Source: Escherichia coli (GTDB taxonomy: Bacteria; Pseudomonadota; Gammaproteobacteria; Enterobacterales; Enterobacteriaceae). Taken from it: 64,000 nt of DNA. Positions 28,833-33,439 of the stretch are shown here, in pieces. A program made the position numbers and the translations under genes. Each line of letters begins with the position of its first letter. Position 1 is the first letter of the stretch. The notes under the pieces are model-generated. The model did not search any database and had not been told where the DNA came from. It saw only the letters and a program-made list of their open reading frames with translations. The stretch lies in NCBI RefSeq assembly GCF_024502345.1, contig NZ_JALDNN010000001.1; one strand, written 5' to 3'.

Positions 28833-29889
28833 GGCTTTGTTGAATAAATCGAACTTTTGCTGAGTTGAAGGATCAGATCACGTATCTTCCCGACAACGCA
28901 GACCGTTCCGTGGCAAAGCAAAAGTTCAAAATCACCAACTGGCCCACCTACAATAAAGCCCTCATCAACCGTGGCTCCATAACTTTCTGGCTGGATGATG
29001 AAGCTATTCAGGCCTGGTATGAGTCAGCAACACCTTCTTCACGAGGCAGACCTCAGCGCTATTCTGACCTTGCCATCACGACTGTGCTGGTCATTAAACG
29101 CGTATTCAGGCTGACCCTGCGCGCTGCGCAGGGCTTTATTGATTCCATTTTTTCTCTGATGAACGTTCCGCTACGCTGCCCGGATTACAGCTGTGTCAGC
29201 AGGCGGGCAAAGTCGGTTAATGTCAGTTTCAAAACGCCCACCCGGGGTGAAATCGCACACCTGGTAATTGATTCCACCGGGCTGAAGGTCTTCGGTGAAG
29301 GCGAGTGGAAAGTCAAAAAGCATGGCCAGGAACGCCGCCGTATCTGGCGTAAGCTGCATCTCGCCGTTGACAGTAAAACACATGAAATCATCTGCGCTGA
29401 CCTGTCGCTGAACAACGTTACGGACTCAGAGGCCTTCCCCGGGTTAATCCGGCAAACCCACCGGAAAATCAGGTCAGCCGCCGCCGATGGCGCTTACGAT
29501 ACCCGGCTATGTCACGATGAACTGCGGCGTAAGAAAATCAGCGCGCTTATCCCTCCCCGAAAAGGTGCGGGTTACTGGCCCGGTGAATATGCAGACCGTA
29601 ACCGTGCAGTGGCTAATCAGCGAATGACCGGGAGTAATGCGCGGTGGAAATGGACAACAGATTACAACCGTCGCTCGATAGCGGAAACGGCGATGTACCG
29701 GGTAAAACAGCTGTTCGGGGGTTCACTGACACTGCGTGACTACGATGGTCAGGTTGCAGAGGCTATGGCCCTGGTACGAGCGCTGAACAAAATGACGAAA
29801 GCAGGTATGCCTGAAAGCGTGCGTATTGCCTGAAAACACAACCCGCTACGGGGGAGACTTACCCGAAATCTGATTTATTCAACAAAGCC
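28833..29889 (+). mobile_element. IS903-like insertion sequence (IS5 family), copy 1, no target-site duplication
   Basis: 1057 bp; terminal inverted repeats ggctttgttgaataaatcg / cgatttattcaacaaagcc; flanks gccccagat vs tcgctgaaa differ. Confidence 0.85.
28865..29833 (+). CDS. IS903-family transposase
   Basis: 322-aa ORF ...[39 protein letters not shown]...; identical to the copy at 56939..57907. Confidence 0.85.
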
Positions 29890-30078
29890 TCGCTGAAAGT
29901 GGAATGTATCCATGGAGAACACTTTATCAGCCGGGAAATAATGCGGGCAACGGTGTTTAATTATATCGAATGTGATTACAATCGGTGGCGGCGGCACAGT
30001 TGGTGTGGCGGCCTCAGTCCGGAACAATTTGAAAACCAGAACCTCGCTTAGGCCTGTGTCCATATTACGTGGGTAGGA
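29890..30078 (+). mobile_element. IS3 right-end remnant (3' end of orfB plus terminal inverted repeat)
   Basis: Encodes [53 protein letters not shown]; ends ...cctgtgtccatattacgtgggtaggatca. Confidence 0.75.
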
Positions 30079-30331
30079 TCACACCTTCTTCCACACTTTC
30101 TGGAACATTTAGGTAACAACCATCTGGATATTGGTGTTGGAACTGGGTTTTACCTTACTCACGTACCTGAGAGTAGTCTGATATCTTTAATGGATTTGAA
30201 CGAAGCTAGCCTGAACGCGGCATCTACAAGGGCTGGGGAATCAAAAATTAAACATAAAATTAACCATTGATGTAGCCCCCTGAAACACCGGACAGTAGCT
30301 GTATCTCCAGATAAGAGATAGGCTTGAATAT

Positions 30332-30727
30332 ATGTCTAACACTAACGCCAATTTTGAGATGACCGGGATCCTGTTAGGGCAAGAAGTCCGTAAACGTAAA
30401 ACTCCTCAGGAGAAGATCGCCATTATCCAGCAGACGATGGAGCCGGGTATGAATGTCTCCCATGTCGCCCGCCTGCATGGTATCCAGCCCAGCCTGCTGT
30501 TTAAGTGGAAGAAGCAATATCAGGAAGGCAGCCTCACCGCCGTTGCGGCTGGAGAGGAAGTCGTTCCTGCTTCTGAGCTTACTGCTGCTCTGAAGCAGGT
30601 CCGGGAGCTTCAGCGCCTTCTGGGCAAGAAAACGATGGAAGTTGAGATCCTGAAAGAAGCCGTGGAGTACGGTCAGTCGCGAAAATGGATAGCGCACGCG
30701 CCCTTGTTGCCAAAGGACGGGGAATAG
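30332..30727 (+). CDS. IS3-family transposase OrfA (HTH)
   Basis: 131 aa, ...[60 protein letters not shown]... similar to IS2 InsC. Confidence 0.8.
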
Positions 30728-31566
30728 CCATGGTCAGCCGGACCATGGGCGTGTCGCGTGCGCAACTGTCACTGCGGATTAACCGTTCTGCCGACTGGCA
30801 GGACAGGCGCTGTAACCGGCGTAATGAAGAAGCAGACGCAGAAATACTGTCGGCTATCCTCAACATTATCAGCGATATGCCGAGTTATGGTTATCGACGC
30901 GTGTGGGGCATCCTGCGCAAGCAACGTCGCACAGAGGGACAGCCACCTGTGAATGCCAAACGGCTTTACAGGATAATGAGCGAGCATAACCTGTTGTTGT
31001 TGCATCACAAACCAGAGCGACCGAAGCGTGAACATAAGGGCAAGATAGCGGTGGCAGAAAGCGATATGCGCTGGTGTTCAGATGGCTTCGAGTTCGGCTG
31101 CGACAACGGCGAAAAACTGCGGGTAACGTTCGCGCTGGACTGCTGCGACCGTGAGGCCATAGACTGGGCAGCAAGCACGGGAGGCTATGACAGTTCGACC
31201 GTGCAGGATGTGATGCTGAGGTCGGTGGAAAAGCGCTTCGGCGACAGGTTGCCCGACACAGCGGTGCAGTGGCTGACGGATAACGGTTCAGCGTATACCG
31301 CGTATGAAACGCGGAGGTTCGCGAGAGAGCTGAATCTGGAGCCCTGCACAACAGCGGTGAGCAGCCCGCAGAGTAATGGCATGGCCGAACGGTTCGTGAA
31401 AACGATGAAAGAAGACTATATCGCGTTCATGCCAAAACCGGATGTGAGAACAGCACTGCGAAACCTTGCAGTAGCGTTCACGCATTACAATGAAAACCAC
31501 CCGCACAGCGCGCTGGGATATCACTCCCCGAGGGAATACCGGCGGCAGCGGACATCGTTAACTTAA
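30685..31566 (+). CDS. IS3-family transposase OrfB (DDE catalytic domain)
   Basis: 293 aa overlapping orfA in another frame; ...[17 protein letters not shown]... Confidence 0.8.
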
Positions 31567-31615
31567 GATACAAAAGCTGTTCGGAGATGGAGGGTCAAGA
31601 TCACATAAAATTAAC

Positions 31616-31972
31616 CATGATGTTTTTGAACCTTATCCCGCGGCGTTACATGGTCAATTTGATTCCATTTCCATGTTTTACCTTCTTCACTGCCTGCCTG
31701 GAAATATATCTACAAAAAGCTGTGTAATACGCAATGCGGCGCAGGCCTTAACTGACGATGGAACTCTATACGGAGCCACAATTCTTGGCGATGGAGTTGT
31801 GCACAATAGCTTCGGTCAAAAACTGATGCGCATTTACAATCAGAAAGGCATCTTTTCAAACACAAAAGATTCCGAAGAAGGCTTAACACATATACTCTCA
31901 GAGCATTTCGAGAATGTTAAAACCAAGGTTCAAGGTACTGTAGTAATGTTTTCCGCTTCAGGGAAAAAATAG
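31616..31972 (+). CDS. Hypothetical protein, apparently 5'-truncated gene remnant
   Basis: Open frame begins immediately after the IS2-like flank with no start until 31673; followed by hairpin terminator at ~31980-32017. Confidence 0.3.
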   Translation, partial: HDVFEPYPAALHGQFDSISMFYLLHCLPGNISTKSCVIRNAAQALTDDGTLYGATILGDGVVHNSFGQKLMRIYNQKGIFSNTKDSEEGLTHILSEHFENVKTKVQGTVVMFSASGKK

Positions 31973-32281
31973 CATCCAACCGCAGCACGTTCTTGCATAA
32001 GGCGTGTCTGCGGTTTTTCAACTATTCAGATACATCACTCCCATCACATTCATTCCTCCGCATCATAGGCATATAGGCTATATCACCTTGATATTTTTCT
32101 TCTTCAGATAAAAACTGTTATCTATGTATACTTTTAAACCCAATCCGTGTAGAGTCTCTGCATAAGATAGTTTGCAGTTGCCACTTCAGCTTGCGCCATA
32201 AACCGCCTGATTTTTGCCGCCACCTGGGTGATGCTGCCAACTTACTGATTTAGTGTATGATGGTGTTTTTGAGGTGCTCCA

Positions 32282-32557
32282 GTGGCTTCTGTTTCTATCA
32301 GCTGTCCCTCCTGTTCAGCTACTGACGGGGTGGTGCGTAACGGCAAAAGCACCGCCGGACATCAGCGCTATCTCTGCTCTCACTGCCGTAAAACATGGCA
32401 ACTGCAGTTCACTTACACCGCTTCTCAACCCGGTACGCACCAGAAAATCATTGATATGGCCATGAATGGCGTTGGATGCCGGGCAACCGCCCGCATTATG
32501 GGCGTTGGCCTCAACACGATTTTCCGCCATTTAAAAAACTCAGGCCGCAGTCGGTAA
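32282..32557 (+). CDS. insA: IS1 InsA
   Basis: 91 aa [43 protein letters not shown]... Confidence 0.9.
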
Positions 32558-32979
32558 CCTCGCGCATACAGCCGGGCAGTGACGTCATCGTCTGCGCGGA
32601 AATGGACGAACAGTGGGGATACGTCGGGGCTAAATCGCGCCAGCGCTGGCTGTTTTACGCGTATGACAGGCTCCGGAAGACGGTTGTTGCGCACGTATTC
32701 GGTGAACGCACTATGGCGACGCTGGGGCGTCTTATGAGCCTGCTGTCACCCTTTGACGTGGTGATATGGATGACGGATGGCTGGCCGCTGTATGAATCCC
32801 GCCTGAAGGGAAAGCTGCACGTAATCAGCAAGCGATATACGCAGCGAATTGAGCGGCATAACCTGAATCTGAGGCAGCACCTGGCACGGCTGGGACGGAA
32901 GTCGCTGTCGTTCTCAAAATCGGTGGAGCTGCATGACAAAGTCATCGGGCATTATCTGAACATAAAACACTATCAATAA
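32476..32979 (+). CDS. insB: IS1 InsB (expressed as InsAB' by frameshift)
   Basis: 167-aa ORF in -1 frame relative to insA. Confidence 0.85.
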
Positions 32980-33439
32980 GTTGGAGTCATTACCTAAGTC
33001 AGGTATAAATATAAGTGACATTGCCCAAGAATTCAAAACCTCGCGGCAAACCATTTTAAGAGCTAAAGCAAAAAATCAGACACCTGATATATAAAAATAA
33101 TCTCGGTGTGAGATTCCTTACGTTTTCCAAGCCCCCCTTCCTAGCCTTAAATGGAAAGATACTTCTAATTATAGAATTTATATATCTTACCCTACGGTAG
33201 GGCTGGCCATTCAATATCCGGTGCAGTTGATGTATCAACACGGTTCAGCAACACCCGATACTTTTTCCAGGCTTCCAGCAACAAGGTTTCTTCCTCCGTT
33301 GCGATCTCCAGATCCACAGCATCCTGAAGCGGCGCTATATGCTCACTGGCTACCTGCATCAGGCTGTTTTTTGTTTCTTCCGCCTACCTGTAATACTGAT
33401 TGCGAGTTGAATGGTTTGATTTGTCATTATCAATTCCTA

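Follow-up and report, generated by a model that had tools for sequence, protein, structure and literature searches.

A recent, intact copy of the insertion sequence ISEcl1 interrupts a prophage gene on Escherichia coli contig NZ_JALDNN010000001.1 (assembly GCF_024502345.1). Our best joint reading, to which we give a probability of about 0.88, is that the perfect 15-bp direct repeat bordering this copy is a genuine target-site duplication, that the lineage to which ISEcl1 belongs attacks its targets with a stagger of 15-16 bp, and that its fused transposase is made by probable slippage on the sequence A AAA U. We refer to the 64,000-nucleotide stretch of the contig analysed here as the window, and all coordinates are those of the window unless another sequence is named. 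Target-site duplications arise from staggered attack by the two 3'-OH ends of an element on the two strands of the target, such that the length of the duplication equals the stagger. That length is treated as a fixed family trait, being 3-5 bp in the IS3 family and 5 bp in its IS2 group, and it reflects how far apart the two active sites sit on the target DNA. An earlier note on this DNA had recognized an IS2-group element with a repeat far beyond the 3-5 bp expected of the IS3 family, an observation that stands; it had looked to a pre-existing repeat or a recombination junction for the origin of the repeat, and had suspected that production of the fused transposase might be impaired, and neither of these proposals is borne out by the comparisons described below.

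The flanking repeat, the empty site and the ends of the element

The features of the insertion are as follows.

30268-31603, + strand: ISEcl1 isoform, complete (IS3 family, IS2 group), 1336 bp, TGATG...GATCA
30253-30267, no strand assigned: direct repeat read as the target-site duplication, left copy CATAAAATTAACCAT; the empty site has one copy
31604-31618, no strand assigned: the same, right copy CATAAAATTAACCAT, abutting the element
30268-30295, + strand: left terminal inverted repeat, core of 28 nt, starting TG where IS2 starts TA
31577-31603, + strand: right terminal inverted repeat, core of 27 nt, ending CA-3'
30081-30267, + strand: upstream fragment of a prophage gene for a class I S-adenosylmethionine-dependent methyltransferase; its own 5' end is missing, homology starting at 30081 and adjoining an IS3-family remnant
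31604-31972, + strand: remainder of this methyltransferase gene downstream of the element, as far as the stop codon

Between 30100 and 31800 the window reads ...AAACATAAAATTAACCAT / TGATGTAGCCCCC ... GGGTCAAGATCA / CATAAAATTAACCAT GATG..., with slashes at the two boundaries of the element. The two copies of the 15-mer match perfectly and abut the element, as the earlier note had described; an exact 15-mer at a fixed abutting position has a chance of about 4^-15 (1e-9). A repeat finder reports 16 nt here (family D7), the terminal A at 31603 being the same as the base that precedes the left copy. Because the element is complete at 1336 bp and this extra matching A belongs to its end, we take the duplication to be 15 bp.

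The interrupted methyltransferase gene sits in a defective lambdoid prophage adjoining appY and ompT, and its uninterrupted form is abundant. The earlier note had proposed a search for the empty site in related genomes, and using as query the two flanks fused through a single 15-mer (350 nt) we find this reconstructed site at 100% identity over all 350 nt in thousands of E. coli chromosomes. Alignment of one uninterrupted genome with the window gives matches to 30081-30267 and to 31604-32226 that overlap by exactly the 15-mer. This particular insertion has no copy in the complete E. coli genomes of the collection. Within the target gene there is also an imperfect 12-bp tandem, AAAATTAAACAT / AAAATTAACCAT, at 30244-30267 (family D3), which encodes KIKHKINH and whose second unit lies inside the duplicated 15-mer.

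That tandem makes slippage conceivable, and with it the proposal that ISEcl1 entered one unit of a pre-existing 15-bp tandem, or that the two copies mark a recombination junction. The natural period of the tandem is however 12 and not 15, and an allele with a tandem 15-mer occurs in none of the 3,816 E. coli genomes holding the gene, in which the best full-length match to such an allele is 95.9% (equivalent to a 15-nt gap) while the single-copy version matches at 100%. The same length of repeat is moreover present at 20 other insertions in unrelated sites, and we regard either origin as extremely improbable. Since the empty site is single-copy and the tandem 15-mer is absent from all 3,816 genomes, the 15-bp repeat is best read as a true target-site duplication, and the insertion is a recent, ordinary hop of ISEcl1 into a prophage gene.

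A second way of explaining the length is to suppose that the ends of the element have been misplaced by about 10 bp, too long or too short, and that the real duplication is the customary 3-5 bp. The ends TGATG and GATCA are fixed by more than 20 independent copies whose identity breaks exactly there and whose flanks are unrelated, the empty sites hold the whole 15- or 16-mer once, and the distance from the tip to a conserved GCCCC block is 7 nt, the same as in IS2; we give this explanation practically no credence. A longer right end, in which the C following GATCA would be part of the element, was considered as the first duplicated base is C at four insertions of the identical element (the window, L001, L002 and L003), and was rejected when other duplications were seen to start with G, A or T. 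The terminal inverted repeats themselves are imperfect, 28 nt of the left repeat aligning with 27 nt of the right across a 1-nt indel, up to ...CCGGACAG / CCGAACAG, and a weaker similarity between them reaches about 39 nt.

The element is 99.9-100% identical to loci annotated 'IS3 family transposase' on plasmids of E. coli, Citrobacter, Klebsiella, Enterobacter and Salmonella, with copies in E. coli and Citrobacter that are 100% identical over 1336 bp, and a copy found on about 1,500 plasmid records of Klebsiella matches it at 98.4-98.7%. One 99.9% identical plasmid copy is labelled 'ISEcl1like' in its record. A further copy (L087), adjacent to mcr-8.2 and 98.7% identical to the element in the window, is named ISEcl1 in the literature (PMC9909390, PMC12210879), and the published length of ISEcl1 is 1336 bp (PMC8805313). 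From this length and the 98.7% identity we take the element in the window to be an isoform of ISEcl1, a name reached indirectly, through the mcr-8.2-adjacent copy; with ISEcl1 of Enterobacter cloacae (AF342826) it shares the length of 1336 bp, and no substantial difference is apparent.

Duplication length across the ISEcl1/ISEc48 lineage

Long duplications are not confined to this site. Exact abutting repeats flank 21 independent insertions, the one in the window included, with 16 bp in 12 of them and 15 bp in the other nine; the insertions comprise ISEcl1, its relatives of 88-99% identity, a 409-bp deletion derivative and ISEc48, and the hosts are E. coli, Citrobacter, Klebsiella, Enterobacter, Leclercia, Yersinia, Pantoea and Candidatus Sodalis. 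The identical element has 16-bp repeats at three sites, in E. coli H1 (in ydjK), in E. coli LZYWN_4 and on plasmid pYLPD7a; further plasmid copies have repeats of 16, 16, 16, 16, 16 and 15 bp; the 16-bp repeat around the mcr-8.2-adjacent copy is TGACACGCCTGCTTAT. Among relatives of 88-95% identity, the exact repeats measure 16 bp in Enterobacter asburiae, 16 bp in Yersinia artesiana and 15 bp in Pantoea stewartii, and Candidatus Sodalis endolongispinus has seven copies with 15 or 16 bp and three more sites at which the repeat is slightly decayed (13/14, 14/16 and 15/16 matches). The repeat of ISEc48, in a carbohydrate porin gene, is 15 bp. Uninterrupted counterparts at 100% identity were likewise found for ydjK (16 bp) and for the ISEc48 porin site (15 bp), which brings the empty sites checked to three, that of the window included.

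The more distant relatives behave differently. A scan for OrfB, taking one genome per species, yielded 80 loci, and those that are IS2-like (61-68% OrfB identity) have 5-bp repeats, in at least nine cases scored by script and about six more by eye. This 5-bp group includes elements of Burkholderia and Pseudomonas with ends very like those of ISEcl1, and because the tip is 7 nt from the GCCCC block in the 5-bp and the 15-16-bp groups alike, the ends have been drawn equivalently in both. Given that 15-16 bp recurs in 21 insertions while the IS2-like loci show 5 bp, we interpret the long duplication as a heritable property of the ISEcl1/ISEc48 lineage; and given that ISEc48, which is 77% identical, also has 15 bp, the property is older than the ISEcl1/ISEc48 split.

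A long duplication could in principle also come from unusual host repair of a normal 5-bp stagger, in which case the geometry of the transposase would be unchanged. The lengths are 15-16 bp only and are seen in at least eight host genera, whereas IS2-like elements in Klebsiella and Enterobacter, which share those hosts, give 5 bp; an effect of the host would not track the phylogeny of the element, and we consider host repair very improbable. The target sites (n=20) have no clear motif and the duplications have a GC content of 42%, with weak preferences for A at the second-last duplicated base (11/20) and against it at the last (1/20).

Two groups of copies include internal deletions. The 409-bp derivative of ISEcl1 joins element positions 1-271 to 1196-1336 with both ends intact, and is flanked by the 15-bp repeat AGGGCGGGGATAACG; it lies at 1601-2009 of locus L098, on Klebsiella pneumoniae plasmid pINF357.1, and occupies the same position in about 10 plasmids from four Klebsiella species. 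We may be seeing a non-autonomous element here, or one whose interior was lost only once it had inserted. In Candidatus Sodalis endolongispinus a single 2.69-Mb contig holds at least 40 copies of a relative of about 91% identity (L009-L047 and L063), many of them internally deleted and most without flanking repeats, a pattern that is as expected if the copies have recombined together in a degenerating insect-symbiont genome.

Coding capacity, the frameshift site and the surroundings of the element

The coding and recoding features are these.

30332-30727, + strand: orfA, 131 amino acids from the first ATG; PGAP start at 30359; HTH_Tnp_1 DNA-binding domain
30685-31566, + strand: orfB, 293 amino acids, in the -1 frame relative to orfA; frame open from 30646, ATG at 30685
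30682-30686, + strand: putative -1 slip site A AAA U (orfA frame CGA AAA UGG), at a position homologous by alignment to the A AAA AAG of IS2
30692-30700, + strand: 5' arm of a stem, GCGCACGCG, 6 nt downstream of the slip site
30755-30763, + strand: 3' arm of the stem, CGCGUGCGC, pairing with 30692-30700

Pfam identifies HTH_Tnp_1 in OrfA (6.5e-19) and rve (2.8e-17), rve_3 and HTH_21 in OrfB, whose catalytic residues are D133, D199 and E235 with the spacing DD(35)E. The fused protein passes the NCBIfam model transpos_IS3 (267.9 against a cut-off of 160), and its top NCBIfam match is IS2 TnpB (2.1e-124), although at 415 bits this is below the subfamily cut-off of 597, and the IS2-specific models all score under their cut-offs. 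Several traits of the IS3 family are plain, with orfA and orfB overlapping in the -1 frame, a helix-turn-helix domain and a DDE core, a length of 1336 bp (the family range being 1.2-1.6 kb) and imperfect TG...CA repeats; a trait that departs is the 3-5-bp duplication, which is 15 bp in the window and 15-16 bp in the lineage. Of the frameshift motifs usual in the family (A6G, A7 or A6C) none is present, and the putative A AAA U site takes the homologous position. Of the IS2-group traits, the nearest relationship of OrfB to the IS2 protein and a length within 1.3-1.4 kb are present, but the duplication is not 5 bp, there is no A6G window, and the left end does not begin with TA. On the strength of protein domains, ends and gene layout we assign the element to the IS3 family, and by similarity to the IS2 group, in agreement with the earlier note.

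The overlap of orfA and orfB reads GCGAAAATGG at 30679-30688, and thus the A6G heptamer of IS2 is missing, as had been noticed earlier together with the ATG that orfB has of its own at 30685. The earlier note had itself raised the possibility that the family normally lacks the heptamer, and for the ISEcl1/ISEc48 lineage this is what we find: CGAAAATGG stands at the position of the IS2 slip site in every member examined, giving CGA AAA TGG where IS2-like loci have A AAA AAG or A AAA AAA; the slip site of IS2 has been described as A AAA AAG (PMC3299598). We note that an element in Pseudomonas sp. SJZ074 (L083; 61% OrfB identity) also has CGAAAATGG in place of the A-rich heptamer and yet has a 5-bp duplication (GGTCT), from which it follows that having the short slip site is independent of making long duplications.

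OrfAB is most likely produced by -1 slippage on A AAA U, aided by the stem that begins 6 nt downstream; a single tRNA-Lys would slip from AAA to the overlapping AAA and so bring the ribosome onto the orfB ATG. The candidate shift segment CGAAAAUGG precedes the stem, which spans 30692-30763. Its 9 bp are present in all groups, with 93% of cells paired, as against 3-64% once the partner is shifted by 1-3 columns. A single pair has changed on both sides (CG to UA, in five sequences), a C-to-U wobble is seen in nine sequences, and RNAalifold predicts the same long-range stem. Since both arms are also coding sequence, this conservation offers modest support. Inside the loop of the stem the element in the window has a near-perfect hairpin, CCATGGTC-AGCC-GGACCATGG (30728-30748), that is not conserved in relatives.

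The suspicion that this copy, or the whole lineage, is impaired in OrfAB for want of A6G, and persists through mobilisation in trans or is immobile, draws on the weaker look of A AAA U beside A AAA AAG and on the separate ATG of orfB. IS2 too, however, has an in-frame GTG at the same place as that ATG, and IS3 itself uses the tetranucleotide slip site A AAA G with a downstream structure. The CGAAAATGG site is common to the lineage members examined, among them more than 40 copies in one Sodalis genome and those on about 1,500 plasmids; the stem that follows it is conserved as well, and PGAP annotates a 402-amino-acid transposase with 'programmed frameshift'. In E. coli and Citrobacter the identical element is found at different sites, in most cases between perfect repeats, and relatives of 88-99% identity do likewise in at least six other genera, which implies recent activity. 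With the lineage so widespread and identical copies at different sites bordered by perfect duplications, impaired production of the transposase appears unlikely.

The element is one of several in a cluster of insertion sequences extending over 28865-32994. To its left are an IS5-family transposase open reading frame (28865-29830) and the C-terminal remnant of an IS3-family transposase (29899-30048), and to its right is an IS1-family element with open reading frames at 32282-32979. Homology to the intact prophage ends at 32226 and restarts at 32995, and about 1.3 kb of the sequence of E. coli AMSHJX01 is missing beside the IS1 element.

Transposition geometry and comparison with known systems

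In the model for IS2 the catalytic centres are 5 bp apart on the target (PMC3299598). In the ISEcl1/ISEc48 lineage the two strand-transfer attacks would instead be 15-16 bp apart, and gap repair would then duplicate 15 or 16 bp. Such a stagger exceeds the 5 bp of IS2 by about one helical turn (10.5 bp), which suggests that the attacked phosphates share a face of the helix, as they do in IS2, but are separated by one more turn; the mixture of 15 and 16 would fit a spacing of about 15.5 bp. End-to-end alignment of OrfB from long-duplication elements with OrfB from 5-bp elements reveals consistent differences at 22 positions. Among them are two extra residues specific to the lineage, at positions 49-50, and a pair of fixed changes in charge flanking the conserved E(x)7K signature, namely R236, which is S in the 5-bp relatives, and E243, which is R in them. 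We regard R236 and E243, which are next to the catalytic glutamate, together with the insertion at 49-50 as candidate determinants of the stagger. Taken furthest, the ISEcl1/ISEc48 lineage might constitute an undescribed branch of the IS3 family, its transposases only about 35% diverged from that of IS2, in which a 15-16-bp attack is combined with an IS2-like 1-bp junction and the switch was made by a few changes (S236R, R243E and the 2-residue insertion); this is a tentative proposal, to which we give less than even odds.

The first step of transposition appears still to be IS2-like, with a 1-bp head-to-tail spacer. A metagenome scan for the right end followed by 0-30 nt and the left end matched one contig, OJTV01001662.1 (L100), in which positions 957-2152 contain element positions 313-1336, a single G (at 1981) and then element positions 1-171. 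The first 956 bp of this contig are 31% GC and unrelated, suggesting a chimeric assembly. The junction itself is probably a real circle or tandem dimer with a spacer of the IS2 type, because assembly through a duplicated target would leave 15-16 nt and not 1. IS2 minicircles have a 1-bp spacer, which also builds the junction promoter, and IS2 insertions have a 5-bp duplication (PMC3299598). About 1,900 plasmid records queried with the right end joined to the left end held no tandem dimers; the apparent matches were the 409-bp deletion derivative and two separate copies 750 bp apart. Given a 1-bp spacer, a model of the junction promoter retrieves TGGAAA-17-TAGACT for IS2 (8.5 bits); for ISEcl1 it gives no score above zero with spacers of 0-18 bp, and it is uninformative on the spacer.

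The most widespread copy of ISEcl1, that on Klebsiella IncFIB plasmids (L089 and L094-L097; positions 1536-1690), has a junction of its own, in which the right end is followed by a single C and then by the left end of an IS2 fragment (TAGACTGGCCCCC...). The IS2 fragment is cut by IS1, and the left flank of the copy is inside an IS1 element. The junction looks like the same end-to-end joining, here between two different elements, with a 1-bp spacing that mimics the IS2 minicircle.

Several points weigh against the interpretation that we favor. The target stagger is deduced from natural insertions, and both the helical-turn reading and the candidate residues have the status of hypotheses. The 1-bp junction comes from a single metagenome contig, the far end of which is visibly chimeric. 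Most of the Candidatus Sodalis copies and the widespread Klebsiella IncFIB copy are without a flanking repeat, and we suppose this to reflect recombination after insertion or else one-ended events. A AAA U is not one of the canonical heptamers, and exact protein look-up of two candidate 402-amino-acid OrfAB sequences, one slipping at AAA-U and the other at CCA-AAG, was negative. Finally, the long duplication may already be recorded in ISfinder. The literature that we searched, which lay outside the ISfinder entries, reports no 15-16-bp repeats for ISEcl1, ISEc48 or any other IS3-family member, and one paper gives ISEcl1 only the generic 5-bp repeat of the IS2 group, citing ISfinder (PMC10425158).

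A lineage whose OrfB is 63-68% identical to that of IS2, and which nevertheless makes duplications of 15-16 bp, forms with IS2 a natural pair in which to ask what determines the active-site spacing of DDE transposases and their integrase relatives, and a short list of candidate residues is available for swapping. There are also practical consequences, as about 1,500 plasmid records from Klebsiella, Enterobacter and E. coli include ISEcl1, which also lies beside the colistin-resistance gene mcr-8. A search for a 5-bp footprint misses the real one (such as the 16-bp repeat of the mcr-8.2-adjacent copy), the insertion may be misread as a rearrangement, and software that caps duplication length by family would mis-call ISEcl1 insertions. 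We expect the interest to be moderate to good for those who study transposition and those who annotate resistance plasmids.

Duplications longer than 10 bp are familiar elsewhere, being 11-13 bp in IS4 and tens to hundreds of bp in IS1634/IS1549. These belong to unrelated DDE families with another pathway, and the lengths in IS1634/IS1549 vary widely, whereas those of the ISEcl1 lineage are held tightly at 15-16 bp. ISEc48, so named in record CP122798.1, shares with ISEcl1 the 77% nucleotide identity, the CGAAAATGG site and a 15-bp duplication confirmed against sister plasmids, but is a separate element with its own ends (TGAGCTGG...AAGAACA). With IS2, the type member of the group in E. coli, ISEcl1 has in common orfA and orfB in the 0 and -1 frames, the OrfB similarity given above, the 7 nt followed by GCCCC, a left repeat 1 nt longer than the right, TGGATAGCGCACGCGCC with a downstream stem after the slip site, and perhaps a 1-bp head-to-tail junction, which is established in IS2 and was seen once for an ISEcl1-like element. 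IS2 differs in its 5-bp duplication, its slip site A AAA AAG rather than A AAA U, and its left end TA, which makes that end inactive as a donor and provides the -10 box of the promoter at the junction; the left end of ISEcl1 is TG, and no convincing junction promoter could be modelled for it. IS3 and IS911, of the IS3 group, share the copy-out, paste-in route through a circle junction, and have 3-4-bp duplications with a junction spacer of about the same length (PMC3299598). Unlike in those elements, spacer and duplication differ from one another in IS2 and probably also in ISEcl1, where the gap would be much larger, at 1 bp against 15-16 bp.

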